Shown here in pieces: positions 36,889 through 64,000 of a stretch of DNA of 64,000 bases (its first letter is position 1; the number at the start of each line of letters is the position of its first letter). This DNA is from Candidatus Saccharimonadales bacterium (GTDB lineage: Bacteria; Patescibacteriota; Saccharimonadia; Saccharimonadales; UBA10212): the NCBI GenBank assembly GCA_049521895.1, contig JBEKOJ010000001.1:695114-759113 (forward strand), in the 5' to 3' direction. A model generated the notes under the pieces. That model was given only the letters and a program-made list of their open reading frames with translations. It did not search any database and was not told where the DNA came from. The translations under genes were made by a program, and so were the position numbers.

Positions 36889-36912
36889 GTCACCTTTAGG
36901 CGTATATCAATC

Positions 36913-44046: not shown

Positions 44047-44078
<32 letters not shown>

Positions 44079-44600: not shown

Positions 44601-44633
<33 letters not shown>

Positions 44634-46207: not shown

Positions 46208-46213
46208 ATATAT

Positions 46214-46246
46214 AAAGGGCCTCCGAAAGGAGGTCCTTTATCTTTT
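46214..46246 (+). terminator. intrinsic terminator after 5S
   Basis: GGGCCTCC-GAAA-GGAGGTCC followed by TTTATCTTTT. Confidence 0.65.
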
Positions 46247-46435: not shown

Positions 46436-46774
46436 TACTTCATAATATCAGTTCTCTGTAGAGAATCAGACTATTTGCTACCCTTGCTACCCGGAGTATA
46501 CTTTCCAAGGCTGACTTTCCAAGGCTGGTCCTTGGAAACGTGGGAAGCGGTTGTTGGAAAGCGCGGGTTTTTATAAATAAATTGTTCAAAATTGTTCAGA
46601 GAAAAATAAAAAGTGTGGATAACTTTTAATAATGTGTGACTAATGTTAGAAAAACAACATGCGAGAGACGTTGATTATTTAAGGTGTAAAAAGCAGCTAA
46701 TGTGTAAAAATGACATCGAAAAAACGTAAAAAATAAACTGGACAAGTAACACCTTAAAAAAACGTCTTTTCCTC

Positions 46775-46803
46775 TTGACTTTGTCCGGTTTAAAATCCAT
46801 AAT
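46775..46803 (+). promoter_or_regulatory. candidate sigma70-type promoter TTGACT-17-CATAAT for the giant gene
   Basis: Hexamers with 17-nt spacing, about 40 nt upstream of GTG 46843. Confidence 0.45.
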
Positions 46804-46842
46804 CTTTAGCAGATTCGCGAACAAAAAAATTAACAAAACAAA

Positions 46843-49800
46843 GTGGCGCGCCAAAAAAGTATAATTTGTCTCTCTTGTGGTCAAAGGTTCAGAGGACGCT
46901 CTGATGCTAAGGCCTGCTCACCCCGGTGTCTTAAACGCTTGCAGCGCGCCGCTAAAGCCACGGCCCGTGAAGCCAAACTCGCCAAGGAGCTAGGCTCTTC
47001 CAAGAATAAAATCTGTCAATCTTGCGGCAAGGTATTTGTCGGCCGGCGGTCTAAAACCTGTTCAGATCGCTGTCGTAGACGTCTGCAGCGGGCTGAAGAC
47101 CTGCTAGCCCGGGAAACAGGCAAGGCAAAGAGTTCAGGCAAGCGCGCCATCGCTTCGGTTGAAAAAAACCTGCAAGAACTAGAGAAAGATATAGCTTCGG
47201 CTGTTGAACCCGAGTTCGCCACCGAAGAGGGCTTTGTAGGCGATGAAACTGCTACCCAACAGGGTGTTCCGGAGACTGTTCCGGTGCGATTGGTCAGCCC
47301 GCAGCCGGCCCAAACGGTCATTAATCCGGCAGCAGCCAACAGTTTAGAGCCCCAGCCCCAACTATCACAACCTGACGCTAGCTTGGAGGGCCAGCCGCAA
47401 AACGCACCGGCAGCAGATACAAGCGATGCTTTAAGTGAAACATTCCTAACAAATACAGATGCGGCCCAAACTCCAAGCGAACCAGACCACTACGAAAGTC
47501 CACTCAGAAGGCTCCTTAGGCCCAAACTGGTTACTTACGGTGTTCTTAGTATTTTCCTGGTCATTGGCATGGCAACAGCGCTATTTGTCTATTCCCGCAG
47601 CCAAAAAACCCAAGTTACTTCTGGGTCAAACCTGAGCTTGTCGCTAAACAGCTCGACCATCAATACTACCGGCGACAGCCTGCATATAAACTTCAATACG
47701 GTAATTGACAGGGGCAAAAGCTTGACGGCTTCCGGGCCAGTCGTTTTACAAAATGACGTCAATTCTACAGCTGCTTTCAAGATCCAAAATGCCGCTGGCA
47801 CATCCAACCTGCTTATCGCCGACACTACCAATAACCGTATCGGCATCGGCAAAGCCCCAACCCTGGGTATCCTGGATGTCAATGGTGCTATCTACCAAAA
47901 CGGCAACCGGGTCTGTGACACCTCTGGCAACTGCATCAGTACAGCCGGCCGCGGTGGTGCCATAAGCGGCTCCGGCTTGTCTGGTACCATAGCCCTGTTT
48001 ACCGGCTCCGGTTCAAGCATCGGTAACTCCGACTTAAGCCAGTCCGGCTCTACGGTTACGGCAACCGGCAACCTTAACATCACCGGCCAGCTCTGGGTCG
48101 GCGGCAGCCAGATCAGCTCCGCCAACCTGTTTAATGACGCCAATCTGGCTAAGCTCAACGGCAACCAGACATTTACCGGTATCAACACCTTTACAGGTAG
48201 CGTACTGCTGCAGAGTGCCAACGGAGTAGGTCTGCTATCTGTTGATAGCCAGAATAGCCTGGTGGAATTGGGGCAGGCTAATGCCCAAACTGGTGCTTTA
48301 GTGTTTTATGGCTCGGCTAACGGTAACAGCATTACCCTGGCTGGGCTGAATGGGCCAACTTCTAATCAGAACATCTTCTTGCCGGATAGCTCAGGTACAA
48401 TCTGTTTGACGAGCGGTAACTGCAGCGGCAGCGGTGGTTACGGCGACGTTTTGCAGGGCGGAAACTCATTTGCCACGACAATGCTGCTGGGGACAAACGA
48501 TAACTTCGGCTTTAATCTGGAAACCAACGGCAATGTCGCCCAAAGTATCGCCAACAGCGGTAGCGTATTGTTCAAGGCTGTCAACGACAGCAGCAGTAAC
48601 TTCCAGGTTCAGACAGCCAATGGCAAAAACCTCCTTAACCTAAATGGTCTCAGCGGACAGTTGACAATAGGTAGCCCGGGCGCGACTGGTGCTACCAGTA
48701 TCGTATTCTCTGGCACCAGCGTTATCAATACTGTTACGTTGGTGGCACCAGCTGGTCCTACTAGTAACCAAACCATCACACTGCCAGACGCGTCAGGTAT
48801 AGTCTGTTTGACTGACGGTAACTGTGTCGGCTTGGGCGGTTATGGTGATATAAATCAGGGTGGTAACAGCTTTAGCACTAATATTTTAATTGGTACCAAC
48901 GATAATTTTGGCTTTAATATTGAGACCGACTCCCATACGGTGGCCAGCTTATCTAACACCGGCGCGGCTACGTTTAAAAACTATACAGATTCTACAAACG
49001 CCTTCCAGATCCAGAATGCCGCCGGTACCAGCAACTTGCTTGTGGCCGATAGCCAAGATACCAGAATTGGTCTTGGCACTAATGCGCCAACGGCTTCTTT
49101 GACTATCAAAGATAATTTTTCCAGCACATCTTTGACCGCTAGCCTAACAGTCTCCGGCAATGAGATAACCGATGCCACCCGCACCGCCAACACCCAAGGC
49201 GATGGCTTTACTCCTCCAGATAGCAGCTATGGCATATGGGAAGGGACCACTAACTTGGTAGTCAATGGTGGTTTTGAGACTAATGTTAATAATTGGGGCG
49301 GCGGCACCGTAACAAATAGCCGTGATACTTCAACTGCCAAATTCGGGTCATCCAGTCTTAAGGCGGTGACCAATAATACTAATGCGGGTACTTGGGGCGG
49401 TGGCTCAAGTACTACGAACGGTACTCCGAACCAAATCCCAGTAACAGTTGGCAATACCTACACCGCCAGCGCATGGATTAAGGCATCAAGCGGTGTAAAT
49501 GCGAACCTTGATATTGAATGGACAAATTCCTCTGGAGCTTCATTCGGCACTATTATTCAAGCATTTACGACGACAGGAAGTTGGCAGCGTGTGACTTTGA
49601 CAGGAACTGCTCCCAGCAATGCTGTCTCAGCAGACATCAACATCAATTCAACCAATTGGGGTGGCGTAGGCCAGGCATTTTGGTTAGACGGTGTGCAGTT
49701 TGAGCAAAAAGCCTATGCCACGCCTTATGTAGAAACCAGCAACGGCTCGACCGCCAGCCGCAGCGGTGCATATATAGGGGCTCCATCCAGTCTTGTAAGC

Positions 49801-52800
49801 GAAGCGCAAGGTTGGGTTGCTGTTAGGGCAAGACTAGGCACGTTAGATACCTCTACATCCCACGATCTGTTCGGATGGGCAGCTAACAGTAGTGTTAATA
49901 GAATTTCAGTTGCCCCAAACAGCTCAACTAGTTGGCAGGGCTTCTTCAGTCGTAATGGTACACCCACGTTCATAAGTGCTACGGATAGTAGCCATTTTAT
50001 TGGCGATATAGTTACAGTTGTACTTAGCTGGACGAATAGTCAGGTCGGCTTGTCTGTCAATGGTTCCAGTTTTTCGACCAGCACCCGCAATGGCACAGTT
50101 GGTGGAGCCAGTTTGCCTTCAACGTTTGGTATAGGTAATATCAATCTAAATTTAGGAAACGATGTGTCCGACGATGACATTATGTGGTTTGCCTCCGGTA
50201 CAGGCACTCTTTCCAATAGTGATGCTTCTACTCTGAACGCTTATGGCAACAACGACCCGACTACAACCAGTTTGTCCAGCTCTTTGCCGTCGGCTATACC
50301 AACAATGGCGTGGGCTGCTAATACGTCTAGTTATCAATATCAAACTGGAATCTACAACCCTGTAGCGCTGCAAGTGCAGGATGCCAGCGGCAACAATTTG
50401 CTGACTGTCAACGCCAACTCTTCGGCCAGCAGTTTATTGGCGCTTGGTGCCAATACCACCACGGCTAGCGGCGGTATTACCTTTGGCACCGACACTTATC
50501 TCTACCGCTCCGGCACAGGTGCTTTGACTCTTCAGGGCGCCGGCAGTAACTCTACTTTGCAAGCTGGAGCTGCTTCGGGCTATAGCATGCCTGGCAGCAA
50601 TCTAATCTTGGCGGGCGGACAGGGTACCGGTTCCGGTAACGGCGGTAACATCAACTTACAGATTGCCCAAGCGGCTGTTCCTAACACCCCTAACGAGAGC
50701 TTTATCACTGGCGCCAATGCCCCAGATAGCGTTGCTGTCGACAGCACTTACGTCTACTGGTCTAACAATGGCAACAACACCATCGGCCGCGCCAACCTGG
50801 ATGGCAGTGGCGTTAACCAAAGTTTTATCACCACTACCACCCCAGATGGCTTATCTGTGGATAGCAGTCATATCTATTGGGAGAATAGTACTAACACCAT
50901 CGGCCGCGCCAACCTGGATGGCAGCGGCGTGAACGATAGCTTTATCACCACAAGCAATGCTCCCCGGGGCACAGCCGTCGACAGTGCTCATATTTACTGG
51001 ACTAACTCTGCTACTAACACCATCGGCCGCGCCAACCTGGATGGCAGTGGCGCAAATAATAGTTTCATTACCACGGGCAACGCTCCAGTTAAAGTCGCCG
51101 TTGATAGCACCCATATTTACTGGACTAATAAGTTGGATAACACCATCGGCCGCGCCACCTTGGACGGCTCCAATGTCAATAATAGCTTCATTACTGGGGC
51201 CAACACGCCTCGGGGCATCGCTGTCAACAGTACCTATATTTACTGGGCCAACAACGGTAACGGCAGCATCGGCCGCGCCAACCTGGATGGCAGTGGCGTT
51301 AACCAAAGCTTCACTACCGGCACTAGTGGCCCAGACGGTATGACTTTAGATAGCGCCAATGTTTATTGGGCTAATTATAATGGCGGCAGTGGGACTACCA
51401 TCGGCCGGCTTAACTTTGGTAACGCTGTTAACAGTTTGTCCACAGTGGCTAGTCTGTCGGGCGTCAACGGAGCGGCCACCTTCCAAAATGCCGCCGACTC
51501 AACTAACGCTTTTCAGATCCAGAACGCTGCCGGTACATCCAACCTGCTTGTGGCCGATACTGCGGACTCTAGAATTGGCATAGGCACAGCCACCCCTACA
51601 GCTACACTATCTGTTAATGGTTCTGGCTTAATCCAACAAGCTAGCTCTGCCGGCACAACTCTAACTACTTCCGGCAATGAAATAACTGACGCTACCAGGA
51701 CCACCAACACCCAAGGCGATGGCAGAACCCCGCCAGATAGCAGTTACGGCATATGGGAAGGCACCACCAATCTAATTACTAATGGTGGGTTTGAAAGTAA
51801 TAAGACTGGCTGGACCGCCAGTGGCTCTACCGCCACTCAGGTTACTAGCCAGCATAAGTTTGGCTCAGGCTCTTTGCAAGTTGTCACCAATGGCGCCCTC
51901 AGTGGAGAAGGTGCTTTACCATCTTATCCAGGCATTAATGTCACAGCTGGAAATACATATACTTTTTCTGGTTGGGTTTATGGCACGAGTGGTTCGGTAA
52001 TGATGATTGATTATACGTTTATTAACGGGGTTAATCAGGGTCAACATAACCAGACATCGGCAGTAACACTTAACGGAACCTGGCAAAGACTAACCTTAAC
52101 CGATACAGCTCCTGCTGGCACCACATCTATGACACCGTTTATAGTGACTGCTGGCGTAGAAGCTATCACTTTCTATATTGACGGGGTCCAAATGGAGCAA
52201 AAAGCTATTGCTACACCCTATGTAGAAACTAATGGCGCTACCGCTAGTCGCACCATTGCTAGCGTCCAGGCCCCTAGCTCTTTACTGAATGTGACTCAAG
52301 GATGGGTTGCTATTCGCCTACGGTTGGGTATTCCGCAAAGTGTCGCCGGCACCAGCGCAGACAACTTCCCAGAATTCTTTACATGGGGCACGAGCAACGG
52401 CAACTACTACTATCTAGCTCCAACTTCAACTGGTGTTGATTTTGCCCGCAAAAATGGTTCAACCAAACAGACTGTAAGTGGTAACGTGACTTGGTCGGTT
52501 GGCGACTATATGACGGTGGTTGCTGCGTGGACAGCGACGCAAACTGGAATAAGCGTCAACGGCAACAATTTTGTAATTAATAACAACACCAGTATACCGA
52601 CTATCAGTGCTAGTACATTCTACATTGGCTCCTCTGGGGACACCAACTTCTTCGGTAATCCAAGCAACTCCGACAATCTCTGGTTCGCCGCCGGCACAGG
52701 TACCCTGACCAATACTGATGCTTCTATTATCAACAACTTTGGTAACACCGATCCCAATCCAATATCTTTTAACGGTACAGCTAACGCAACCATGGTTTGG

Positions 52801-55800
52801 CAGGCTAACACCTCTACTTACACTAATGTTAACAGCCAACCAATAGTCTTTCAGGTCCAAAACTCAGCCAATAGTAACTTGCTGAGTATCGATGCTAGTG
52901 CCTCGCAACTTTTGGCTAACACCACTACTGTGTTTAGAAACAGTACTAACTCACCTACCGCTTTCCAAGTACAGAATGCCGCCGGCACTACACTTTTGGG
53001 TGTTGATACTACAAACGGCTTAGTTAACCTGGGCACCCCAGGTTCTAGCGGCGCTAATGGCCAGATTGTCTTTAATTCTACCAATGCTGCCGGCTATGGC
53101 GTAACTATCGCTGCAACTAGCGCGCTGAGCCAGTCTTACACTTTAAAACTCCCAACTGCCGCGCCGGTGCAAAGCCAGTGTTTGGTAGTTGACTCGGTAG
53201 ACGCCAGTCAACTTAACTTTGGTTCGTGTGCCACCGGTAGTGGCGGGTCAGTTGATCTGCAAGGCGCTTACAATAACTCCACCACTCCAGCTACTATCAC
53301 CACCACTTCACCAACCAAGACTCTAATCTTTAAAGCTGGCACCAACAACGACTCCACAACCTTATTCCAGATCCAGAATGCCGCTGGCACATCCAATCTG
53401 TTAGTAGCTGATACCACTGACACTAGACTAGGTGTTGGTACAGCTGCGCCGCTGACTACTTTACAGGTGAATGGCACGGGCTTAATTCAAGGTTCTTCCT
53501 CTACTAGCAATAACTTAACAGTCTCCGGTAATGAGATAACTGATGCGTCCAGAACTCAAAACCAACAAGGCGACGGCCGCACCCCACCAGACAGCAGTTA
53601 TGGCATATGGGAAGGGACGACTAACCTGGTTACCAATGGTGGGTTTGAGAGTAATACGAATGGGTGGGTAGCGTACGGTAGCGGAACAACATTTAGCCGT
53701 GATACGAACGTATCTAAATTCGGGCCGGCATCTCTAAAAGTGGTAACTGATGGAACCATCGCCCAGCAAGGAGTTTACGTTGCGGCAAACTTCTCTCCCA
53801 GCTTGACCTACACTGCCTCCATGTGGGTAAAAGGCCCCTCAGGCGCAAACTTCGTCTTTTGGTCGGCCAATAACTTCCCCAATATTTATGTTAACGGAAC
53901 GTTTACTGGTTCTTGGCAGAGAGTGTCACTGACAGGTACGACACCTTCATATTCTTCATCGGCGTGGCTTATCTTTCAGACTAATTCCGCAGAGGCAATC
54001 ACTTTTTGGGTTGATGGTGCTCAGTTTGAGCAGAAATCAATTGCTACACCTTATGTAGAGACTAATGGCGCCACGGCCAGCCGCAGTAACTCAGCTGTAA
54101 CAGCACCGTCTAGTTTGATTAACTCCACCCAGGGGTGGGCCAGTGTTAGGATGCGAATGAGCTTTGCTAGCACAACGATACCGAACTCATTCGTGATTCC
54201 TTTCACGTGGGACGACGGAACCGGCAATAACGCTATACAGCTAAGGTTCAATGGCTCATGGACCACATTGCGTTGTACTGGCGGATCTTGCGGTAGTGCT
54301 GCAGTTGTTGCTGACACATTCAGTGCCGGTGATTTCCGAACTGTAATACTAAAATGGGACGCCTCTACCATCGGAATCTCAATTAACGGTGGTTCGTTTA
54401 CTACTGCAAGTAATGGGAACATTCCGTCTGGACTTGGTGCCACCTTTAGGCTTGGCTCTGGAAATGGATTTAACCAAGTTGACTCTGACTTTATGTGGAC
54501 CGCCACCGGCACCGGCACGCTGACTAACACTGATGCTACTAACATCAACAACTTTGGTAATACTGATCCATATATCACTAATTTCTCCCAAGCTGCCTAT
54601 CCTACTATGGTCTGGCATGCCAATAACGCCACCTATCAAACAGGTAGCAGCTTGGCCCTACAGGTTCAAAATAGCAATGGTAATAATCTCTTCAACATCA
54701 ACTCGGCTAATACCAGCTTAATAGCTAACACCAACACCAATACCTTCCAAAATACCATTGACTCTACTAATGCCTTCCAGATCCAGAATGCCGCTGGCAC
54801 ATCCAATCTGTTAGTAGCTGATACCACTGACACTAGACTAGGTGTTGGTACAGCTGCGCCGCTGACTACTTTACAGGTGAATGGCACGGGCTTAATTCAA
54901 GGTTCTTCCTCTACTAGCAATAACTTAACAGTCTCCGGTAATGAGATAACTGATGCGTCCAGAACTCAAAACCAACAAGGCGACGGCCGCACCCCACCAG
55001 ACAGCAGTTATGGCATATGGGAAGGGACGACTAACCTGGTTACCAATGGTGGGTTTGAGAGTAATACAACGGGGTGGGGTGCAAGGAACTCTGCAACTTA
55101 TGCAAGGATAACGGCTTTTTCGAAGTTTGGTGCCGCCTCCTTGCAAGTAAACGGAACAGGAAGTACTACTACGCAAGGCATACAATCACCAGAGGTTGCT
55201 ATTTCCCCAAGCATTACTTACACGGCTTCAACTTGGGTCTATTCTCTTTCGGGTACCTCGGTTCAAATATATATAAACTGGTATGACGGCTCGAACGCAT
55301 ACATCTCGACGAGTAGTGGTACGGCAACTGGAACGGCTACTGGGTGGACGAGAGTTTCTGGAACCGCCCCATCACCATCTAATGCTAGCTTTGCAAACAT
55401 TCAAGTCTTCTTCCCAAGCGGGCAACCGATCCAAACATTTTATATCGATGGGGCCCAGATTGAGCAAAAAGCTATCGCCACACCTTACGTAGAAACCAAC
55501 GGTACCACGGCCAGCCGCAGCGCCGCGCGCGTCCAAGCCCCCGTTGCCAACACCATAAATGCCACCCAGGGCTGGATAGCGATGCGATTCCGACCAGCAT
55601 GGTCGGCTAGTACAGAGCCCGCATCCCAAGACAATGCAAGGCTGTTTTTATGGTGTGGCTCAACCTGCAATGACCGACTGGATCTATACTATAATCTCTC
55701 TAATCAAACCTTTGACCTAGGACGTTACGCGGGTGGTTCCGGAGGCGGATCGGGTTCAAATACACAGTCATTTGCGGCTGGCAGTCCTGTAACAGTCGTT

Positions 55801-58800
55801 GCAGCCTGGGATTCAGGGCACCTCTATGTGTCAGTAAATGGTTCCAGCTTTATATCTAGCACCAATACTAATATTCCTACAATTTCAACGTCGACATTTG
55901 ATCTAGGTTCATATGGCAATGGCAGCCATTATCTCGATTCCGACATCCTTTGGACAGCCACCGGCACAGGTACCCTGACTAACACAGATGCTACTAACAT
56001 CAATAACTTTGGCAATACTGATCCATATATCACTAACTTCTCCCAGGCCAGCTACCCGACCATGGTTTGGCAGGCTAACAACGCTACCTACCAAACTGGC
56101 ACCAGCCTGGCTCTGCAGGTCCAGAACAGCACAGGAGCTAACCTCTTCAACATTAACTCGGCTAACACCAGCTTAATAGCTAACACCAACACCAATACCT
56201 TCCAAAATACCATTGACTCTACTAATGCCTTCCAGATTCAGAATGCTGCTGGGACATCCAACCTATTTGTAGCTGACACAACCGATTCACGTATAGGCAT
56301 AGGCACAGCTACACCGGTAGCTACAGTCAACGTTGTAGGTTCTACATTGCTACAGCAAGGAGCAGCTACATCTCTAACCGTCTCTGGTAACGAGATAACT
56401 GATGTTACCCGTACCACCAACACCCAAGGCGATGGCCGAACCCCACCAGACAGCAGCTATGGTATCTGGGAAGGGACGACCAACCTGCTAACTAACGGCG
56501 GCTTTGAGAGCGGGACGACGCCGTGGAACCCACTGGGGTCAGGCGCGTCTCAAACTCGTGTTACTACACAAGCAAAATTTGGTTCAGCCTCTCTTGCCGT
56601 AACTACTCCAGGATCGAGTGCCACTGAAGGCACAGCTATATCAGTCATAACGCTTAGTAGTAGTACTACCTATACGATGAGTGCTTGGGTGCTTTGGGAA
56701 AACGGAGTAGCCGGCAGATTAATCTTCTTTGACGCTACTGGAGCCAGCAACTACGCGACAACCAACTTCACTGGTACGGGCACTTGGCAGCGAGTGACAG
56801 TTACTGCAACAACGTTGTCTACAAGCACGCAGTTCCAGTTAAGGCTAGAGAGAAATGTAGCAACAGCAGGCACTTTCTATGTAGACGGTGCCCAAATTGA
56901 GCAAAAAGCCATTGCTACGCCTTATGTAGAGACCAGCAACGGCTCCACTGCCAGCCGCAATGCTCCCAGCGTTCGAGCTCCGGCATCCTTAATTAATCAA
57001 AATCAATTCTGGGTAGCAGCCAGGGTGAGGATGGGTGTCTCAAGCGCCAACTGGCCCCATAACTTAACACTCTTTAATTGGGGCGATGCTTCACCGGGCT
57101 ATTTCCACTTGGCCTTCAATAGTAGTGGAGCTGAAATGCAAAGCCACACCTCTGGATATAGTGCTGCTGCCGCCAGCTTTAGTTGGAATGCTGGCGACTT
57201 AATAACTATAATTGGCTATCGAACTTCTAGTGGTAGTCTGGGACTATCTGTCAATGGAGGTAGCTTCTCTACAGGCACGGATATTCAAGCGGTTTCCGGG
57301 TTGCCAAGTACCTTTACACTAGGTACAGACTTTGTTCCTTATAATTTGGACTCCGACATCCTTTGGTCTGCCACCGGCATAGGCACCCTAACTAATACCG
57401 ATGCCACTAACCTCAATGCCTTTGGCAATACCGATCCGAACTTCAACCAGCTGCCGCCAGCCGGTGATCCAACTATGCTCTGGAAGGCTAATAATTCTAA
57501 CTACATAGGTCCTTCCAATGCAGATATAGTCTTCCAGGCCAACAATAGTGCAGGCACTAGCTTACTCTCCCTTGATGCCACCAACGCTAAACTAACCGTA
57601 TCTACCGCCGGCCTCTTCCAAAACACCACTAACTCTGCTAATGCCTTTACAGTTAACACCTCTACTGGTAGCCAGCTATTCAACGTTAATACCTCTAACC
57701 TTCAAGTAACCACTAATAATCTCCAATCCTCCGGAGCGGTCAACCTAAGTAACACCCAAGGCACGGTATCCTTAGCTGGAAGCCTGCAAAACTCCTCCCA
57801 AACCCTAACTACCTCTGGCAATGAGATAACTGATGCAGAACGTGCTATAGGTGCATCCTCTACCAACACAGCTGGCCAATCTTACGACGGCAAAACCAAT
57901 GACTCCTCCTACGGCATATGGGAAGGCACGACGAACCTGGTTACTAATGGAGGGTTTGAGAACAATACGACAGGGTGGTCGAATAACGACGGTGTAGCCA
58001 CTTTGGCGCAGGATGCAACTAAATCGAAATTTGGCAGTAAATCTCTCAAGGTTACTCCTGTCGCTGGGCCTACATCAGGGGCAAGAATAAATCCTGCCTT
58101 ATCCACTACTTCTGGCAGCACCTATACTGCCTCCGGTTGGGTATGGGTTACAGCAGGCCAAGCCGTTAAGTTATCGGTTTATCGAGCAGATTTTTCAACA
58201 CTGCTAATTAACACAAATATTACGGGCAATAGTGGATGGCAGAGAGTTACGGCTACCTGGACCGCGCCAGCTACAGAGCTTGCCTATGTAGAGTTCTTGT
58301 CGGCCGATTCAAGCGGCACAGCGTTTTATCTAGATGGCGCGCAGATTGAGCAAAAAGCCTACGCAACGCCTTACGTAGAAACCAATGGCACTACCGCCAC
58401 GCGCAGCGCAGGCCGAGTTCAAGGCCCGGTAACTGCTTTAAGTGCTACCCAGGGCTGGGTGGCGATGCGAGTTAGGATGGGCTTTGCTTCTAGCGTTTCA
58501 TTCAGTGTCCCGCGTGAATTCTTCTCTTATGACGACGGGACACTGAATAATAGGTTCCAGCTTAGGTGGAATCCAGGCACTGTCTCGTGGGTTGCAGACA
58601 CAGTCGTCGGAGGCGTTGCACAGACTCAAATACTCATTGCCGACAGTTTCAATGCGGGAGATGTGCGTACAATAATAATCAGTTGGACTTCCAGCCAGAC
58701 ATTTTTGTCGATTGCCGGCTCTAACTTTACGGGAGCAGCTACCTCCAAGCCGACGGGACTAAACGATCTGGATATAGGTTCATCTACGGGTTCAGGACTT

Positions 58801-61800
58801 ACCGGTCGTGAAGTAGACTCCGACATCCTCTGGGCTGCCACCGGCACCGGCACGCTGAGTAACTCTGACGCTACGACTTTGAATAATCTTGGCAACACTG
58901 ACCCGACCTTAGCTAAGCTCTACAGCTTAAATGGTGGAGCAGGGCAACCAACCTTTGTCTGGAACGCTAATACGGCTAACTACCAAGATATAACAAGCTC
59001 TAACGGCCAAGCCCTAATCTTTGCCGCTAATACCTCTGGGGCCACTACTGGCAACCTAATAGACCTGCAATCCGGCCTGTACCCCTCCAGCAAGTTTTCT
59101 GTAGACGTAAATGGTAACCTAACTGATGTCGGCACCGCCCTCTTCCAGAACACTACTGACTCTACCGCCGCCTTCCAGATCCAAAATGCTGTCGGCACAT
59201 CAAATCTGTTTGTAGCTGATACGGCTGACACTAGACTAGGAGTAGGAACGGCTACACCGGTAGCTACAGTCAACGTTGTAGGTTCTACATTACTACAGCA
59301 AAGGGCAACTACATCTCTAACAGTCTCAGGTAACGAGATAACTGATGCAACTCGTACAACGAATACCCAAGGCGACGGCCGCACCCCACCGGACAGTAGC
59401 TACGGCATCTGGGAAGGCACCACCAACCTAATGATACATGGCGGCATGGAAGGTGGCCTTGGCCAATGGGTGCAAAGTGGCAGTGGCACGGTTACCTTAT
59501 CTAACGACACAAGCACTGCAAAGTTTGGCAGTAAATCCCTTAAAGCTTCCAGCGATGGATCTGTTACAAACGGTGTTAAATGGGATAATGGCGCGGGTGG
59601 AGTCGGCGTGTCCCCAAGCACTACCTATACTTTCTCGGCCTGGGTAAAGGGAACTGGTTCAGCGTTTATACAAATATCTGAATATGCTAGTGGTGTATCC
59701 TTTGTCACTAACGATGGTTCCAGCAACTTTACTCTCACCTCTAGCTGGCAGCGTATAACACTGACTTTCACCACTTCGTCAACAACGGTAGCTGCTTTGC
59801 CTCGCATACTTTTGAACACAGGCTCTGCATGGACTTTGTGGGTTGATGGTGTGCAGCTTGAGCAAAAAGCAATCGCTACACCTTATGTAGAAACCAATGG
59901 CTCTACAGCTACCCGCAACGCCGCCCGCGTGCAGGGCCCAGCAACGGCAATAAACTCAACCCAGAGCTGGTTTGCCGCCCGTATCCGTGTGGGTTGGTCA
60001 ACAACATCTACCAACAGTACCTTCTCCCGTGTGTTTGACTGGGGGGACAGTGATGGAGTTAATGAAATAAGGCTGGCCTGGGTAGATGCTTCTAAGATGT
60101 GGTTGATGCAAAGATATGCCGGCGGCTCTGTGACCAATGCAACAAGCGCTACTCAAACATTCAACGCGGGGGATGTATTAACTATTATTGGATCATGGAC
60201 TAGTGGCCAGGTTGCAATTAGTATTAATGGATCTACATTTACATCAGCTGTTAATACCTATATTCCTTCTCTTGTTGCTTCTCAGTTCAATATCGGCAGT
60301 GATATCAACGGTTACCAACAGGGTGATTCTGATTTCCTCTGGACTGCCACCGGCACCGGCACTCTGACTAACACTGATGCAGCTAACCTTAATGCCTTCG
60401 GTAACACTGACCCGAACTTCAACCAGCTGCCAGCTACTGGCACTCCAACCATGCTCTGGAAAGCTAATAACTCTAACTACATTACATCCTCTAATGCCGA
60501 CATAGTCCTACAAGCTAACAATAACGCTGGCTCTAGCTTACTCTCCCTTGATGCCACCAACTCTAAGCTAACAGTAAATACACAGGGCCTTTTCCAAAAC
60601 ACTACCAATAGCAGTAATGCCTTTACAGTCAACACCTCTACTGGTACCCAGCTATTCAACGTAAATACTGCTAACCTCCAAGTAAGCACTAATAACCTCC
60701 AATCCTCCGGAGCCGTTAACCTAACCAACTCTCAAGGCACTGTCTCCCTAGCTGGAAGTCTGCAAAACAGCAGCCAAACTCTAACTACAAGTGGTAATGA
60801 GATAACTGATGCCGAACGTGCTATAGGCGCATCCTCTACCAACACAGCCGGCCAATCCTATGATGGTAAAACTAGTGATAGCTCCTACGGCATATGGGAA
60901 GGGACGACTAATTTAGTTACTAATGGAGGGTTTGAGAGTAATACAACGGGGTGGACTATAGTTGCTGGAGACGAAACCCTGGTACGTACAACTACAACTT
61001 CTAAGTTTGGTTCCGGTAGTGCATCAGTAACAACTACAGCCAATGCTACACGAGGGCTAATTATTGCCAGTGCCTCACGTCCTGCGGTGTCGGCGTCTAC
61101 AGCCTATACCTATTCTGCCTGGGTTAATGCCCCTGCAGGTGCTCCTATGACACTAAGATTACGAGAGTATATTGGCGCAACACCGCAGGGCGATACCGAC
61201 CAAACTTTTATCGGTACAGGTACTTGGCAAAGAGTTAGTGTTACTCGGACGATGACTTCAACTGGTGGGTCCACTGCTAGTTTGTGGGTATTCCAAACGG
61301 ACGCTACTGTTAGAACCTTCTATGTCGACGGCGCCCAATTGGAGCAAAAAGCGATTGCTACACCTTATGTAGAAACCAATGGTGTTACCGCCAGCCGCAG
61401 CGCCGCCCGTATACAAGCCCCGGCCAGTAATCTGAACGCCACTCAAGGCTGGGCTGCTGTCCGCGTCCGGTTTGGTTGGGCGTCAACTACCTCTCTTGGC
61501 TTCTTGCGATTTTTGTCCTGGGGTAATGACGGCAACAACGCCTTAGAAATTACTAATCAATTGAATCCGGGCGGTGGCATTGCCGTGGTTAGGCGCACTG
61601 CTGGGTCTGGAGCTAACGCGAACGCGTCATTGACATGGAACGCTGGTGATACTGCCACTATCGTTGCAACCTGGACAGCTTCGACATTGAATGTGAGTGT
61701 AAACGGCGGCGCATTTATTACGGTTGCCAATAACACGATTCCTTCTATTACATCCACCACTTTTGATATAGGTGATAGATTTGATTCAACGAGTCAGGCT

Positions 61801-64000
61801 GACTCCGACATCCTCTGGGCTGCCACCGGCACCGGCACGCTGAGTAACTCTGACGCTACGACTTTGAATAATCTTGGCAACACTGACCCGACCTTAGCTA
61901 AGCTCTACAGCTTAAATGGTGGAGCAGGGCAACCAACCTTTGTCTGGAACGCTAATACGGCTAACTACCAAGATATAACAAGCTCTAACGGCCAAGCCCT
62001 AATCTTTGCCGCTAATACCTCTGGGGCCACTACTGGCAACCTAATAGACCTGCAATCCGGCCTGTACCCCTCCAGCAAGTTTTCTGTAGACGTAAATGGT
62101 AACCTAACTGATGTCGGCACCGCCCTCTTCCAGAACACTACTGACTCTACCGCCGCCTTCCAGATCCAAAATGCTGCCGGCACATCTAACCTCTTTGTAG
62201 CCGATACCACAGACTCTAGAATAGGTATAGGTACAGCTACGCCTACGGCCACCCTTTCGGTAAATGGCACCGGCTTAATCCAAGCCAGCTCTGCCAGTAA
62301 CCCACAACTGACTGTCTCTGGTAACGAGATAACTGACGCTACCAGGACTACCAATACCCAAGGCGATGGCAGAACCCCGCCAGACTCCAGCGAAGGCATA
62401 TGGGAAGGCACGACCAACCTGATTACTAATGGCGGATTTGAGAATAATACTACGGGGTGGGGCGCATGGTCAGCCAGTACTGCTGCTAGGACAACTTCCC
62501 GGGCTAAATTCGGATCTGCTTCACTTGCTTTATCTGGTTCGACTAATCCATACATAGGTGGGTCCACAGGATTTGCGCCGACTACAGGAACCCAGTACAC
62601 AGCTTCGCTCTGGTTTAAACCGGTAGAAACGGCCACTTACTCACTCAGGGCTAGCGACGCTACAACCTTGTGGAATGCCTATGGTCCACAGATACAGGCT
62701 CAAGCGGGAGTATGGACACGCTACACTGTTACCTTCACTCCGGGCAACTCCAACAATCTTGTTCTAGGTATGTTCTACGAAGGAGGAGGTAGTGGTTACT
62801 TCACCGGTGAAACAGTCTATTACGACGGCGTACAGGTTGAGCAAAAAGCCATCGCTACACCTTATGTAGAAACCAGCAACGGTTCAACCGCCAGCCGCAG
62901 TGATGCGGCTGCATCGGCTCCAGCAAGCCTAATAAATAATATCCAGAGTTGGATGTCCGTCCGTGCCAGAATTGATGCTCCGACTGGTTCTGGCCAGCCC
63001 ACCCACAGTTTTTTCTCTTGGAATGTTAATAGCAACACGACCCTCCATCTCTACTATAATTCTTCTAGTGGCACGCAGCTGCGTGCAGGACGACAAGTTA
63101 CTGGTTCTGAAAACACAGTTGCCATCAATTACAGTGGTAATGTAGGTGATTTAGTCACTGTAACATTTGCCTGGACTGCCACTAACCTTTACTTGAGCCT
63201 TAATGGTGGCGCTTTTGTATCAGTTAGTAATACAGCGACAAGTGGTACAGGCTATCCTTCGACATTCAATATCGGTTCAGCAGAAAGTGGTACAGGCGTT
63301 GGAGCACTTGATGGCGACATTTTGTGGTTTGCTACTGGCACCGGCATCCTGACTAATACTGATGCCAGCAATATCTACGGCTTTGGCAATGCTGACCCGG
63401 GCTTCTCCAGCTTCCCGGGTTACTCCACGCCCACTATGGTCTGGCAGGCTAATAACTCCAGCTACATCAATAACTCTAACAACTCATCCATAACCTTTAA
63501 TGTCCAGAACTCCAGTGGCAATAGCTTGCTTGACGTTGACTCTAACTTGATGTCGGTCAACCTACAGGCTGCTACTAACAGTACTGCAGCCTTAGTCCTG
63601 GGCAACGACGCCAACCTCTACCGTAGTGCCGCTAATACCCTAAAAACCGATAGCTCACTGGTAGTAGCTGGCGCTAACGCTAAGTTCCAAAATACCACTG
63701 ACTCTACAAACGCTTTCCAGATCCAGAACGCCGCCGGTACATCAAACCTATTAGTGGCCGATACTGCCGATAGCCGTATAGGCATAGGCACAGCCAGTGC
63801 CACCTCTACCTTAACTGTCAGCGGCAGCGGTCTGATTCAGCAGAGTGCGGCAACTAACTCACTGACTGTAAGCGGCAATGAAATAACTGATGCCAGCCGT
63901 ACAACAAACACCCAAGGTGATGGCCGCACCCCGCCCGACAGTAGCTATGGGATATGGGAATCTACCACCAACTTGGTTACTAATGGTGGTATGGAGAATA
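46843..64000 (+). CDS. giant modular surface protein, 5' partial (at least 5,719 codons, continues beyond the window)
   Basis: Frame 1 was read codon by codon from 46843 to 64000 with no TAA/TAG/TGA. TAA at 46831-33 closes the frame upstream, and GTG 46843 is the first start. Missing from the track because no stop lies in the window. Confidence 0.9.
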   Translation, partial: MARQKSIICLSCGQRFRGRSDAKACSPRCLKRLQRAAKATAREAKLAKELGSSKNKICQSCGKVFVGRRSKTCSDRCRRRLQRAEDLLARETGKAKSSGKRAIASVEKNLQELEKDIASAVEPEFATEEGFVGDETATQQGVPETVPVRLVSPQPAQTVINPAAANSLEPQPQLSQPDASLEGQPQNAPAADTSDALSETFLTNTDAAQTPSEPDHYESPLRRLLRPKLVTYGVLSIFLVIGMATALFVYSRSQKTQVTSGSNLSLSLNSSTINTTGDSLHINFNTVIDRGKSLTASGPVVLQNDVNSTAAFKIQNAAGTSNLLIADTTNNRIGIGKAPTLGILDVNGAIYQNGNRVCDTSGNCISTAGRGGAISGSGLSGTIALFTGSGSSIGNSDLSQSGSTVTATGNLNITGQLWVGGSQISSANLFNDANLAKLNGNQTFTGINTFTGSVLLQSANGVGLLSVDSQNSLVELGQANAQTGALVFYGSANGNSITLAGLNGPTSNQNIFLPDSSGTICLTSGNCSGSGGYGDVLQGGNSFATTMLLGTNDNFGFNLETNGNVAQSIANSGSVLFKAVNDSSSNFQVQTANGKNLLNLNGLSGQLTIGSPGATGATSIVFSGTSVINTVTLVAPAGPTSNQTITLPDASGIVCLTDGNCVGLGGYGDINQGGNSFSTNILIGTNDNFGFNIETDSHTVASLSNTGAATFKNYTDSTNAFQIQNAAGTSNLLVADSQDTRIGLGTNAPTASLTIKDNFSSTSLTASLTVSGNEITDATRTANTQGDGFTPPDSSYGIWEGTTNLVVNGGFETNVNNWGGGTVTNSRDTSTAKFGSSSLKAVTNNTNAGTWGGGSSTTNGTPNQIPVTVGNTYTASAWIKASSGVNANLDIEWTNSSGASFGTIIQAFTTTGSWQRVTLTGTAPSNAVSADININSTNWGGVGQAFWLDGVQFEQKAYATPYVETSNGSTASRSGAYIGAPSSLVSEAQGWVAVRARLGTLDTSTSHDLFGWAANSSVNRISVAPNSSTSWQGFFSRNGTPTFISATDSSHFIGDIVTVVLSWTNSQVGLSVNGSSFSTSTRNGTVGGASLPSTFGIGNINLNLGNDVSDDDIMWFASGTGTLSNSDASTLNAYGNNDPTTTSLSSSLPSAIPTMAWAANTSSYQYQTGIYNPVALQVQDASGNNLLTVNANSSASSLLALGANTTTASGGITFGTDTYLYRSGTGALTLQGAGSNSTLQAGAASGYSMPGSNLILAGGQGTGSGNGGNINLQIAQAAVPNTPNESFITGANAPDSVAVDSTYVYWSNNGNNTIGRANLDGSGVNQSFITTTTPDGLSVDSSHIYWENSTNTIGRANLDGSGVNDSFITTSNAPRGTAVDSAHIYWTNSATNTIGRANLDGSGANNSFITTGNAPVKVAVDSTHIYWTNKLDNTIGRATLDGSNVNNSFITGANTPRGIAVNSTYIYWANNGNGSIGRANLDGSGVNQSFTTGTSGPDGMTLDSANVYWANYNGGSGTTIGRLNFGNAVNSLSTVASLSGVNGAATFQNAADSTNAFQIQNAAGTSNLLVADTADSRIGIGTATPTATLSVNGSGLIQQASSAGTTLTTSGNEITDATRTTNTQGDGRTPPDSSYGIWEGTTNLITNGGFESNKTGWTASGSTATQVTSQHKFGSGSLQVVTNGALSGEGALPSYPGINVTAGNTYTFSGWVYGTSGSVMMIDYTFINGVNQGQHNQTSAVTLNGTWQRLTLTDTAPAGTTSMTPFIVTAGVEAITFYIDGVQMEQKAIATPYVETNGATASRTIASVQAPSSLLNVTQGWVAIRLRLGIPQSVAGTSADNFPEFFTWGTSNGNYYYLAPTSTGVDFARKNGSTKQTVSGNVTWSVGDYMTVVAAWTATQTGISVNGNNFVINNNTSIPTISASTFYIGSSGDTNFFGNPSNSDNLWFAAGTGTLTNTDASIINNFGNTDPNPISFNGTANATMVWQANTSTYTNVNSQPIVFQVQNSANSNLLSIDASASQLLANTTTVFRNSTNSPTAFQVQNAAGTTLLGVDTTNGLVNLGTPGSSGANGQIVFNSTNAAGYGVTIAATSALSQSYTLKLPTAAPVQSQCLVVDSVDASQLNFGSCATGSGGSVDLQGAYNNSTTPATITTTSPTKTLIFKAGTNNDSTTLFQIQNAAGTSNLLVADTTDTRLGVGTAAPLTTLQVNGTGLIQGSSSTSNNLTVSGNEITDASRTQNQQGDGRTPPDSSYGIWEGTTNLVTNGGFESNTNGWVAYGSGTTFSRDTNVSKFGPASLKVVTDGTIAQQGVYVAANFSPSLTYTASMWVKGPSGANFVFWSANNFPNIYVNGTFTGSWQRVSLTGTTPSYSSSAWLIFQTNSAEAITFWVDGAQFEQKSIATPYVETNGATASRSNSAVTAPSSLINSTQGWASVRMRMSFASTTIPNSFVIPFTWDDGTGNNAIQLRFNGSWTTLRCTGGSCGSAAVVADTFSAGDFRTVILKWDASTIGISINGGSFTTASNGNIPSGLGATFRLGSGNGFNQVDSDFMWTATGTGTLTNTDATNINNFGNTDPYITNFSQAAYPTMVWHANNATYQTGSSLALQVQNSNGNNLFNINSANTSLIANTNTNTFQNTIDSTNAFQIQNAAGTSNLLVADTTDTRLGVGTAAPLTTLQVNGTGLIQGSSSTSNNLTVSGNEITDASRTQNQQGDGRTPPDSSYGIWEGTTNLVTNGGFESNTTGWGARNSATYARITAFSKFGAASLQVNGTGSTTTQGIQSPEVAISPSITYTASTWVYSLSGTSVQIYINWYDGSNAYISTSSGTATGTATGWTRVSGTAPSPSNASFANIQVFFPSGQPIQTFYIDGAQIEQKAIATPYVETNGTTASRSAARVQAPVANTINATQGWIAMRFRPAWSASTEPASQDNARLFLWCGSTCNDRLDLYYNLSNQTFDLGRYAGGSGGGSGSNTQSFAAGSPVTVVAAWDSGHLYVSVNGSSFISSTNTNIPTISTSTFDLGSYGNGSHYLDSDILWTATGTGTLTNTDATNINNFGNTDPYITNFSQASYPTMVWQANNATYQTGTSLALQVQNSTGANLFNINSANTSLIANTNTNTFQNTIDSTNAFQIQNAAGTSNLFVADTTDSRIGIGTATPVATVNVVGSTLLQQGAATSLTVSGNEITDVTRTTNTQGDGRTPPDSSYGIWEGTTNLLTNGGFESGTTPWNPLGSGASQTRVTTQAKFGSASLAVTTPGSSATEGTAISVITLSSSTTYTMSAWVLWENGVAGRLIFFDATGASNYATTNFTGTGTWQRVTVTATTLSTSTQFQLRLERNVATAGTFYVDGAQIEQKAIATPYVETSNGSTASRNAPSVRAPASLINQNQFWVAARVRMGVSSANWPHNLTLFNWGDASPGYFHLAFNSSGAEMQSHTSGYSAAAASFSWNAGDLITIIGYRTSSGSLGLSVNGGSFSTGTDIQAVSGLPSTFTLGTDFVPYNLDSDILWSATGIGTLTNTDATNLNAFGNTDPNFNQLPPAGDPTMLWKANNSNYIGPSNADIVFQANNSAGTSLLSLDATNAKLTVSTAGLFQNTTNSANAFTVNTSTGSQLFNVNTSNLQVTTNNLQSSGAVNLSNTQGTVSLAGSLQNSSQTLTTSGNEITDAERAIGASSTNTAGQSYDGKTNDSSYGIWEGTTNLVTNGGFENNTTGWSNNDGVATLAQDATKSKFGSKSLKVTPVAGPTSGARINPALSTTSGSTYTASGWVWVTAGQAVKLSVYRADFSTLLINTNITGNSGWQRVTATWTAPATELAYVEFLSADSSGTAFYLDGAQIEQKAYATPYVETNGTTATRSAGRVQGPVTALSATQGWVAMRVRMGFASSVSFSVPREFFSYDDGTLNNRFQLRWNPGTVSWVADTVVGGVAQTQILIADSFNAGDVRTIIISWTSSQTFLSIAGSNFTGAATSKPTGLNDLDIGSSTGSGLTGREVDSDILWAATGTGTLSNSDATTLNNLGNTDPTLAKLYSLNGGAGQPTFVWNANTANYQDITSSNGQALIFAANTSGATTGNLIDLQSGLYPSSKFSVDVNGNLTDVGTALFQNTTDSTAAFQIQNAVGTSNLFVADTADTRLGVGTATPVATVNVVGSTLLQQRATTSLTVSGNEITDATRTTNTQGDGRTPPDSSYGIWEGTTNLMIHGGMEGGLGQWVQSGSGTVTLSNDTSTAKFGSKSLKASSDGSVTNGVKWDNGAGGVGVSPSTTYTFSAWVKGTGSAFIQISEYASGVSFVTNDGSSNFTLTSSWQRITLTFTTSSTTVAALPRILLNTGSAWTLWVDGVQLEQKAIATPYVETNGSTATRNAARVQGPATAINSTQSWFAARIRVGWSTTSTNSTFSRVFDWGDSDGVNEIRLAWVDASKMWLMQRYAGGSVTNATSATQTFNAGDVLTIIGSWTSGQVAISINGSTFTSAVNTYIPSLVASQFNIGSDINGYQQGDSDFLWTATGTGTLTNTDAANLNAFGNTDPNFNQLPATGTPTMLWKANNSNYITSSNADIVLQANNNAGSSLLSLDATNSKLTVNTQGLFQNTTNSSNAFTVNTSTGTQLFNVNTANLQVSTNNLQSSGAVNLTNSQGTVSLAGSLQNSSQTLTTSGNEITDAERAIGASSTNTAGQSYDGKTSDSSYGIWEGTTNLVTNGGFESNTTGWTIVAGDETLVRTTTTSKFGSGSASVTTTANATRGLIIASASRPAVSASTAYTYSAWVNAPAGAPMTLRLREYIGATPQGDTDQTFIGTGTWQRVSVTRTMTSTGGSTASLWVFQTDATVRTFYVDGAQLEQKAIATPYVETNGVTASRSAARIQAPASNLNATQGWAAVRVRFGWASTTSLGFLRFLSWGNDGNNALEITNQLNPGGGIAVVRRTAGSGANANASLTWNAGDTATIVATWTASTLNVSVNGGAFITVANNTIPSITSTTFDIGDRFDSTSQADSDILWAATGTGTLSNSDATTLNNLGNTDPTLAKLYSLNGGAGQPTFVWNANTANYQDITSSNGQALIFAANTSGATTGNLIDLQSGLYPSSKFSVDVNGNLTDVGTALFQNTTDSTAAFQIQNAAGTSNLFVADTTDSRIGIGTATPTATLSVNGTGLIQASSASNPQLTVSGNEITDATRTTNTQGDGRTPPDSSEGIWEGTTNLITNGGFENNTTGWGAWSASTAARTTSRAKFGSASLALSGSTNPYIGGSTGFAPTTGTQYTASLWFKPVETATYSLRASDATTLWNAYGPQIQAQAGVWTRYTVTFTPGNSNNLVLGMFYEGGGSGYFTGETVYYDGVQVEQKAIATPYVETSNGSTASRSDAAASAPASLINNIQSWMSVRARIDAPTGSGQPTHSFFSWNVNSNTTLHLYYNSSSGTQLRAGRQVTGSENTVAINYSGNVGDLVTVTFAWTATNLYLSLNGGAFVSVSNTATSGTGYPSTFNIGSAESGTGVGALDGDILWFATGTGILTNTDASNIYGFGNADPGFSSFPGYSTPTMVWQANNSSYINNSNNSSITFNVQNSSGNSLLDVDSNLMSVNLQAATNSTAALVLGNDANLYRSAANTLKTDSSLVVAGANAKFQNTTDSTNAFQIQNAAGTSNLLVADTADSRIGIGTASATSTLTVSGSGLIQQSAATNSLTVSGNEITDASRTTNTQGDGRTPPDSSYGIWESTTNLVTNGGMEN
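46867..47073 (+). other. two tandem CxxC-x11/12-CSxxC zinc-ribbon (TRASH/FCS-like) motifs at the giant protein N-terminus
   Basis: CLSCGQRFRGRSDAKACSPRC (46867-46929) and CQSCGKVFVGRRSKTCSDRC (47014-47073). A TM helix LVTYGVLSIFLVIGMATALFVY follows at 47527-47592. Confidence 0.6.
50698..51420 (+). repeat. six 40-41-aa YWTD/NHL-like beta-propeller blades inside the giant ORF
   Basis: Six repeats of FIT..N.P.G.AVDS..IYW.N...NTIGRANLDGSG.N.S. The DNA core ACCATCGGCCGCGCCAACCTGGATGGCAG recurs almost exactly. Confidence 0.65.
53365..53657 (+). repeat. 293-bp exact direct repeat (copy 1) in a giant-ORF linker
   Basis: Identical base for base to 54775-55067 (offset 1,410 bp, in frame). Confidence 0.9.
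54775..55067 (+). repeat. 293-bp exact direct repeat (copy 2)
   Basis: Identical to 53365-53657. Confidence 0.9.
58816..59191 (+). repeat. 376-bp exact direct repeat (copy 1) in a giant-ORF linker
   Basis: Identical base for base to 61801-62176 (offset 2,985 bp, in frame). First mismatch at 59192. Confidence 0.9.
61801..62176 (+). repeat. 376-bp exact direct repeat (copy 2)
   Basis: Identical to 58816-59191. Confidence 0.9.

Follow-up and report, generated by a model that had tools for sequence, protein, structure and literature searches.

Why should a gene whose modules are highly diverged also hold long direct repeats without a single mismatch? This question is raised by a giant gene in a 64,000-nucleotide stretch of DNA from a Candidatus Saccharimonadales bacterium (assembly GCA_049521895.1, contig JBEKOJ010000001.1, positions 695,114 to 759,113 of the forward strand). 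We refer to this whole stretch as the window and count all coordinates from its first letter. The gene is predicted to encode a cell-surface protein made of tandem modules, and two segments of the linkers in these modules each occur twice, as perfect copies of 293 and 376 nucleotides (nt). We find that the perfect repeats probably reflect recent short-tract gene conversion between paralogous linkers of this one gene, a non-reciprocal form of homologous exchange that covers a few hundred bases.

Two perfect repeat pairs share one reading frame

The giant gene lies in a frame that is open without a stop from 46834 to 63999, and the first start codon in it is a GTG at 46843. Gene calls on identical public contigs use the same GTG. 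The motif WEGTTN marks the module boundaries; nine modules are complete, and a tenth has just begun at the window end. Each module comprises a CBM_4_9 beta-sandwich, a LamG-like beta-sandwich and a linker of 150-190 amino acids (aa). We divide the linker into half A, from 'DSDxLW..TGTGTLTNTDA' to 'DSTxAFQIQNA', and half B, from 'FQIQNAAGTSNL' to 'DSSYGIWEGTTNLxTNGGFE'.

46843..64000, + strand: giant open reading frame (ORF), partial, continuing past the window end; >5,719 aa
49237..51753, + strand: module M1, 839 aa, with an inserted beta-propeller of the YWTD/LDL-receptor-B type
51754..53607, + strand: module M2, 618 aa, with a long linker
53608..55017, + strand: module M3, 470 aa
55018..56466, + strand: module M4
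56467..57918, + strand: module M5, with a distinct linker type that is common to M7
57919..59409, + strand: module M6
59410..60894, + strand: module M7
60895..62400, + strand: module M8, structure predicted
62401..64000, + strand: module M9, followed by the opening residues of a tenth, with a WESTTN motif at the window end
53365..53657, + strand: copy a of pair 1; half B of the M2 linker plus 50 nt at the start of M3, from exact identity and translation
54775..55067, + strand: copy b of pair 1; half B of the M3 linker plus the start of M4, from exact identity
58816..59191, + strand: copy a of pair 2; half A of the M6 linker, from exact identity to 61801-62176
61801..62176, + strand: copy b of pair 2; half A of the M8 linker, from exact identity to 58816-59191

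The copies of pair 1 are identical at 293 of 293 positions and those of pair 2 at 376 of 376. Both pairs are maximal, such that neither can be extended by even one base on either side. The copies are offset by 1410 nt (pair 1) and 2985 nt (pair 2). Each offset is divisible by 3, and in the one shared ORF every copy begins at codon position 1. A preliminary description of this DNA had reported two exact, in-frame repeat pairs of these lengths and offsets, and it was right in each detail. In translation, copy a of pair 1 reads FQIQNAAG...SGNEITDASR...DSSYGIWEGTTNLVTNGGFESN, laid out within half B as FQIQNAAG...SGNEITD...DSSYGIWEGTTNL. Copy a of pair 2 begins at the last LamG strand (DSDILW...), takes in half A of the M6 linker and ends at FQIQNA.

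The two pairs stand apart from all other repeats in the window. When every exact direct repeat of at least 25 nt is listed, they are by far the longest. The third longest measures 71 nt (54712-54782 = 56167-56237) and is also located in the giant gene, as are most of the remaining repeats. Every repeat within the gene has an offset that is a multiple of 3.

Chance does not explain the identity. If the copies were as similar as the best imperfect linker pairs (85% identity), an unbroken run would have a probability of ~2e-21 for 293 nt and ~3e-27 for 376 nt, which excludes chance for both pairs. In a Sawyer-type permutation of polymorphic sites, restricted to sites that vary among modules, the pairs give concordant runs of 160 and 223, whereas no run in 2000 permutations was longer than 23, and three more linker pairs are also significant. 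The edges of the repeats are mostly sharp. Identity drops to background (~30% in ungapped register) inside 30 nt at three of the four ends, while at the right end of pair 2 it fades across ~90 nt. Within the perfect tracts there are no synonymous differences at 72.7 sites (pair 1) and 92.3 sites (pair 2).

The linkers form a mosaic that the globular domains lack

The globular domains of the modules are 36-60% identical in nucleotides and 35-46% in amino acids in all module combinations, so the earlier description of the sequence between the copies as highly diverged is accurate. They are saturated at synonymous sites, with a proportion of synonymous differences (pS) of 0.75-0.89, compared with 0.38-0.58 in the imperfect linker pairs. 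The linker halves pair up in a way that has no counterpart in the globular domains. For half A, the partners are M3-M4 (84%), M5-M7 (80%) and M6-M8 (100%); for half B, they are M2-M3 (97-100%), M4-M6 (82%) and M5-M7 (84%). Three older linker pairs stand beside the two perfect ones, listed here with their synonymous divergence (dS) and, where given, the ratio of nonsynonymous to synonymous divergence (dN/dS).

54481..54780 versus 55936-56235, + strand: older linker-A pair M3/M4, 85-86.5% identity, dS 1.1, dN/dS 0.04
56199..56498 versus 59142-59441, + strand: older linker-B pair M4/M6, 81% identity, dS 0.77, dN/dS 0.08
57349..57918 versus 60325-60894, + strand: older linker A+B pair M5/M7, 78-84% identity, dS 0.96 (A) and 0.52 (B)

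The M3/M4 pair includes the 71-nt exact stretch. Two of these similarities had already been noticed, at a supposed identity of about 90%; the similarity is genuine, but the figure was too high, at 86.5% for 54500-54781 against 55955-56236 and 80-82% for 57340-57800 against 60316-60800.

Across all linker pairs, dS is graded (0, about 0, 0.52, 0.77, 0.96 and 1.11), which points to exchange events of different ages. The dN/dS values of 0.04-0.17 indicate purifying selection on the linkers. Where the imperfect pairs differ, the mismatches fall mostly at third codon positions, are mostly transitions and involve all four bases, with no adenine bias. A conservation profile that omits the young pairs has its peaks at the repeat end points, at the motifs DSDxLW.., DSTxAFQIQNA.. 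and DSSYGIWEGTTNL.., and the same end-point motifs are also kept in module homologues from other organisms.

Recombination or gene conversion had been proposed as the origin of the repeats on first sight of them. The lack of synonymous differences, the sharp edges, the graded older pairs and the switching of partners between halves all support that origin. We suggest that short linker motifs, conserved in all modules for protein reasons, would supply the homology at which exchange starts and ends. The A and B halves would then be overwritten as units, leaving the ancient, saturated globular domains untouched. One such event could have homogenised half B of M2 and M3 (pair 1) and another half A of M6 and M8 (pair 2), while the older linker pairs may be earlier events of the same kind. 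The machinery could be homologous recombination of the RecA type. Gene conversion between bacterial paralogues is known.

As a by-product, identities of 293 and 376 nt would be good substrates for the in-frame loss or gain of one or two modules. An in-frame crossover had been predicted from the offsets, and the module boundaries agree with it: at pair 1 it would remove or add one module (M3; 1410 nt = 470 aa), and at pair 2 two modules (2985 nt = 995 aa).

The finding is solid but ordinary. Intragenic homogenisation is a familiar route in the evolution of genes for repetitive surface proteins, and the giant gene adds one more case of this known process. The value of the finding is that of a clean and datable case, with gene conversion that is patchy and restricted to linkers, in the giant surface protein of a symbiont whose genome is reduced.

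A related gene suggests the direction of one exchange

The 3' end of a homologous giant gene is present on a public contig of 4.4 kb (L039; JGI sample 3300037141, GC 52.5%). Its A segment is 79.1% identical to the shared A segment of M6 and M8 (A6=A8) and at most 66% identical to every other A segment. The B segment next to it has 79.2% identity with B8 and only 68.3% with B6. The relative thus shares the combination A8-B8, which suggests that A8-B8 predates the split and that A6 beside B6 is derived. On this comparison, M8 was probably the donor and M6 the recipient of the pair 2 linker.

The globular module of L039 is equally distant (37-43% aa) from all nine modules of the window. No one of M1-M9 stands out as its orthologue, and orthology by position is therefore not established. 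The comparison of related genomes that had been proposed earlier is informative on A8-B8 through L039. It yielded nothing from three further related loci (L011-L013), which have weak repeats; one of them, L012 in a Saccharibacteria metagenome-assembled genome (MAG), breaks at the first module.

The gene end on L039 (55-3909) consists of a last CBM-LamG module, a long linker of the M2 type, several FQIQN-type fibre repeats, a C-terminal domain of ~250 aa (…YYNASLNKFRCFENGAWGNC…) and a stop. The M2-type linker lies near the N-terminal end of the array in the window and after the last module in L039. Either linker order differs between the relatives, or the window gene has a second M2-type linker beyond position 64000.

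Public assemblies break or mis-join at the repeats

Ten public contigs encode an identical LAGLIDADG protein. Eight contigs match the window at 100% over the full overlap (4-20 kb; seven samples in ENA, JGI and Logan). The longest overlap reaches position 54971, and the window from 55 to 64 kb is known from the present assembly alone.

Two MEGAHIT contigs from two samples (L002 and L003) both stop at 53657. This is the last base of copy a of pair 1 and the point at which the downstream sequences of the two copies part. A metaSPAdes contig (L001; NODE_2013, ERZ4200889) carries M2, the repeat, M3 and the first 197 nt of copy b, with 100% identity. From 54971, within copy b, this contig is chimeric and continues out of frame in sequence whose native place is another large gene (L015, L016), with 1 nt in common at the junction. 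A gene call of 2,718 aa on L001 might be taken for a short allele with fewer modules. The out-of-frame continuation in the other gene and the single shared nucleotide at the junction rule this out. L001 is a chimeric contig or an illegitimate join and no product of homologous recombination, and its 2,718-aa gene call is either an artefact or a truncating rearrangement.

The repeats had been flagged as an assembly hazard, and these three public contigs confirm it. Short-read assemblies of this organism will break or mis-join at the repeats, and the number and order of modules in such giant genes are not trustworthy without long reads.

These contigs also bear on whether the perfect identity is itself an assembly or polishing artefact. 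In that case the copies would be merely similar (e.g., 95-99%), and a collapsed or consensus repeat would have been written twice, or one copy misplaced. We consider this unlikely. It draws on the behaviour of short-read assemblers, which do break here on exact repeats longer than common k-mers (L002, L003 and L001), and on the lack of independent sequence over pair 2. Against it, the 17-kb ORF remains open, and the copies sit in register between flanks appropriate to their modules. The tracts end in conserved motifs and not at arbitrary points. Assemblies from other samples reproduce the order M2-repeat-M3-repeat, and two contigs end at the same divergence base. Furthermore, even 95-99% identity would demand recent exchange, because the neighbouring sequence is saturated. 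An artefact, if true, would thus not change the biology much.

Several points nonetheless weigh against recent gene conversion as the explanation, or at least against parts of it. The perfect identity of pair 2 comes from this assembly, outside support being available for pair 1 only, and consensus or polishing with multi-mapped reads can turn copies of 97-99% identity into copies of 100%. For pair 1, the short-read SPAdes path of L001 crosses a repeat longer than the k-mer, so that a base-perfect pair is not independently proven there. The permutation test does not model rate heterogeneity, and the donor direction comes from a single 4.4-kb contig (L039) of uncertain orthology. Among the window ORFs scanned, there is no recombination gene. 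Finally, the process would be one deduced from finished sequence, as it was not seen in action at the level of reads or strains.

Descent and programmed variation explain less of the pattern

Identity by descent is very unlikely to be the explanation. Here, a recent tandem duplication of one or two modules would have been followed by replacement of the globular parts, through foreign cassettes or targeted hypermutation. Two patterns fit such a history: four adjoining segments pair at a two-module offset (B4-B6, A5-A7, B5-B7 and A6-A8), and between genomes the linkers are better conserved (79% nt in L039) than the globular part (37-43% aa). However, the four segments differ in age (dS 0.77, 0.96, 0.52 and 0), and so do not stem from one event. 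The globular domains are saturated, with no extra similarity between M5 and M7 or between M6 and M8. Replacement from outside also finds no trace in composition, since GC and GC3 are even across the modules and give no hint of imported cassettes; a foreign origin of modules was ruled out on this basis. There is no mutagenic signature, and there is no reverse transcriptase in the window.

More ambitious is the idea that selection keeps identical linkers as crossover sites, so that the modules of a host-binding protein vary continually and in frame. The preliminary description had suggested that recombination is "ongoing" and could work as a built-in means of changing how many modules there are and in what order. 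Such a device is possible in principle, given the long identities and the in-frame recombinants, but the available data lend it no support. Among the public contigs, whose overlap extends to 54971, we found no homologous variant in module count or order, and the eight that match are 100% identical where they overlap. Only 2 of about 18 linker halves are identical, with the others at 62-86%, which looks like sporadic conversion followed by decay. The multiple-of-3 offset of every repeat in the gene agrees with a device of this kind, but in-frame offsets are automatic for repeats inside one ORF. Homologous recombination needs a few tens of bases in E. coli, and the identities of 293 and 376 nt are far above the length needed. 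The module is also of a phage receptor-binding type (see below).

A further observation in favour of such a device comes from M1, where one public contig (L004; ERZ27249748) differs in length. The blade repeats of the M1 propeller lie at 50652-51318 and include a short exact repeat.

50776..50924, + strand: exact 32-nt direct repeat in the M1 propeller (50776-50807 = 50893-50924)

L004 lacks the 117 nt between the copies of this repeat (junction at L004:8878-8909). The loss is in frame and equals one blade (39 aa), reducing six NTIGRANLDGS-type blades to five. Otherwise the contig matches the window, save for one mismatch at its end. The deletion may be genuine, a length variant of the gene, or MEGAHIT may have mis-joined the contig. 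Taken together, we regard a programmed device as highly improbable. A related reading, in which the motif-bounded linkers serve as a recombination scaffold and an episymbiotic Saccharibacterium reshuffles, deletes or duplicates phage-receptor-binding-type lectin modules of the giant adhesin at high frequency in clonal populations, is quite unlikely. If it were true, this would be a system of length and order variation for host attachment in which the variable units are the binding domains themselves, unlike the stalks of Periscope proteins (see below). Module-count variants, if shown by long reads, would provide a direct handle on variation of the host-binding surface in ultra-small episymbionts.

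That either purifying selection acting solely on the linker peptide or a diversity-generating retroelement (DGR) accounts for the pattern has a negligible probability: the linkers are under strong purifying selection (dN/dS 0.04-0.17) and Candidate Phyla Radiation (CPR) genomes are known to carry DGRs, but peptide selection is refuted by the 73 and 92 synonymous sites that it could not hold identical, and a DGR target by a mismatch spectrum without adenine bias in the imperfect pairs and by the lack of an RVT_1-type reverse transcriptase in the window, where the sole RVT_3 match is an RNase H/ASCH protein. Recent gene conversion among the linkers therefore remains the reading that we favour.

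The giant protein is predicted to be anchored at the cell surface

The N-terminal region of the giant protein lies ahead of the module array, and a promoter-like site precedes the gene.

46775..46803, + strand: promoter-like site TTGACT-17-CATAAT, from a consensus scan only
46867..47073, + strand: two Cys4 zinc-ribbon-like motifs, CxxC-x12-CxxxC, residues 9-29 and 58-77
47527..47595, + strand: hydrophobic segment, predicted membrane anchor, residues ~229-251, with RRLLRPK just before it

The putative promoter is ~40 nt upstream of the GTG and 570 nt past the 5S rRNA. The N-terminal cysteines (residues 9, 12, 25, 29, 58, 61, 73 and 77) that form the Cys4 motifs fall in a lysine/arginine-rich, predicted cytoplasmic N-terminus, before the membrane helix. 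When residues 1-798 were compared with PHROGs, there were only weak matches, to the Zn-finger parts of HNH proteins or of the HNH-endonuclease type. Residues ~229-251 are the sole segment above 1.6 in a Kyte-Doolittle scan of the whole protein, and ~550 residues of fibre-like sequence separate this helix from the module array. The protein is thus predicted to be anchored in the cell surface by one N-terminal helix, with >5,400 aa downstream of it outside the cell.

Pfam assigns CBM_4_9 (PF02018) to nine stretches of the protein, and each module is matched (E 5e-39 and 3e-49; 134 and 167 bits against a gathering cut-off of 25.9). The other matches are Ldl_recept_b/DUF5050 in M1 and a weak Laminin_G. 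No synthase domains (condensation, adenylation, KS, AT or carrier) are among them, and we rejected a megasynthase of the nonribosomal peptide or polyketide type on these grounds. Pfam at E up to 1 has no family for the linkers or for residues 248-798, and PHROGs has none for the CBM-LamG module. In an AlphaFold (AF2) monomer model of M8 with its linkers, two beta-sandwiches are predicted with a confidence score (pLDDT) >90 over residues 90-460. They match structures of CBM22, CBM16 and CBM4 and of laminin-G/galectin. The linkers have no confident structure in this monomer model (pLDDT below 50-60), and the pair 2 repeat corresponds to residues 398-522 of the modelled construct. A role in adhesion to glycans on another cell may be inferred, and the giant protein is a plausible multi-specific attachment organelle.

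The large gene that continues L001 (L001:20056-20477; L015:4713-6427) has the same GC (48.7%), an HTH-like N-terminus, a membrane helix and fibre-like repeats. Its product, apparently from the same organism, has two MerR/HTH-like segments before the helix, compared with the Cys4 motifs of the giant protein. Both proteins resemble surface fibres whose cytoplasmic head would bind nucleic acid or metal.

Module homologues occur in phage tail-fibre positions

Homologues of the module at 30-49% identity are found as stand-alone proteins, in type IV pilin-like proteins and in viral proteins. The stand-alone homologues have ~390 aa and begin right at 'LTxSGNEITD', while in the pilin-like proteins the module is the C-terminal part. 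Single-module homologues are encoded by 22 viral contigs from IMG/VR (L017-L038, GC 43-71%). We examined gene order in two of these. In L021 (5980-8865) the module gene comes after those for the tape measure and Dit, and in L032 (4477-8436) after a baseplate wedge gene, which places it in a tail-fibre or receptor-binding position. Among the predicted viral structures of BFVD, the module matches tail-fibre and minor tail proteins (best E 1e-27). The CBM plus ConA/LamG module is thus of a phage tail-fibre or receptor-binding type. Modules of this sort are carried by phages on their tail fibres and are joined to pilins in related bacteria.

Phage proteins have one module each, and a tandem arrangement seems peculiar to giant proteins of this kind. 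All relatives found by protein search are <1,400 aa, and none is near-identical to the giant protein. A search of GTDB species representative contigs with M9 returned only distant relatives, an exact cluster look-up of a 2,271-aa fragment gave no match, and neither did a look-up of an antisense ORF. A Saccharibacteria protein with ten or more modules of the receptor-binding type in tandem may merit separate study.

The window has an unusual rRNA operon

On the evidence of its gene content, the window is part of a Saccharibacteria/CPR-type genome. This assignment follows from an rRNA operon interrupted by protein genes, LAGLIDADG ORFs both in and beside the 23S gene, and proteins of Saccharimonadales MAGs as the best relatives. 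The operon spans 32651-46208, with the 16S gene at 32651-34239, the 23S gene at 40559-44878 and the 5S gene at 46094-46208. The 6-kb gap between 16S and 23S contains tRNA-Ile, tRNA-Ala, a GT1 glycosyltransferase, a GH130 phosphorylase and other protein genes. The 23S match spans 4,320 nt against a model of 2,925 nt, which implies insertions. One LAGLIDADG ORF (43316-43804) is within the 23S span and another (44917-45393) just past its annotated end. The contig L003 is identical to the window at 43144-53657, and its 23S sequence upstream of this (L003:1-2468) is only 73-83% identical to that of the window. This is probably a chimera through conserved rRNA, or else a strain with a different 23S or intron content.

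An AT-rich element of ~45-55 nt, with TGTTAAAT/TGTAAAT sub-repeats, occurs in four copies (1374-1425, 3125-3170, 34326-34365 and 41283-41335) that have mutual exact matches of 27-35 nt. A GT2-like ORF (1433-3049) has a copy on either side; of the other two, one follows the 16S gene closely and one is within the 23S span. Candidate roles are a regulatory site, a terminator or an insertion boundary.

Directly upstream of gyrB and gyrA is a 966-aa ORF (22343-25243) with matches to AAA_22, TraG-D_C and HerA-like proteins, as in coupling ATPases of the VirD4/TraG type. No other conjugation or secretion genes were recognised nearby.

Comparison with known repeat-containing systems

The giant protein invites comparison with Periscope proteins and other surface proteins that have tandem repeats of high identity, such as the SHIRT domains of Sgo_0707, SasG/Aap, Rib/alpha C, Esp and CdrA (PMC8201768, PMC9704523). 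In Periscope proteins, near-identical folded domains form a stalk, and the number of repeats varies by strain (PMC8201768). Like them, the giant protein is a long, cell-anchored surface protein of tandem units, although its anchor is predicted, and long stretches of similar DNA are expected to promote in-frame recombination. The repeats are likewise an assembly problem that needs long reads. In contrast to Periscope proteins, its folded domains are only 35-46% identical in amino acids, and two linker segments alone are identical. Its modules also look like binding units rather than spacers, and no variation in their number was seen in the public contigs, which extend to 54971.

A second parallel is offered by the gp37/gp38 adhesin loci of T-even phages. 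There, as Tetart, Desplats and Krisch reportedly described in 1998, recombination at short conserved motifs swaps hypervariable receptor-binding segments. Both systems have diverged receptor-binding segments bracketed by short conserved exchange motifs, and the module is itself of a tail-fibre type. In T-even phages, exchange takes place between genomes and the variable part is swapped, whereas in the giant gene the conserved linker would be exchanged within one gene while the variable domains stay in place.

Intragenic homogenisation, or concerted evolution, is documented for spidroin genes, among others (PMC3933166, PMC3563967). Spidroin repeat units, like the linkers here, are more alike than their age predicts, synonymous sites included, and gene conversion or unequal crossover explains this. 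The scale differs, however. In spidroins, whole units are homogenised along the array, whereas in the giant gene the pattern is patchy and pairwise and concerns sub-module segments bounded by motifs.

Finally, giant repeat-rich surface proteins are found in ultra-small and predatory bacteria (bioRxiv 10.1101/2023.11.21.568195), including Vampirococcus (PMC8080830). These, too, are very large, membrane-anchored extracellular proteins with many binding-type domains, encoded by reduced-genome symbionts, and their repeats fragment assemblies. They differ in their building blocks, which are HEAT or dockerin domains there and CBM_4_9 plus LamG modules here.

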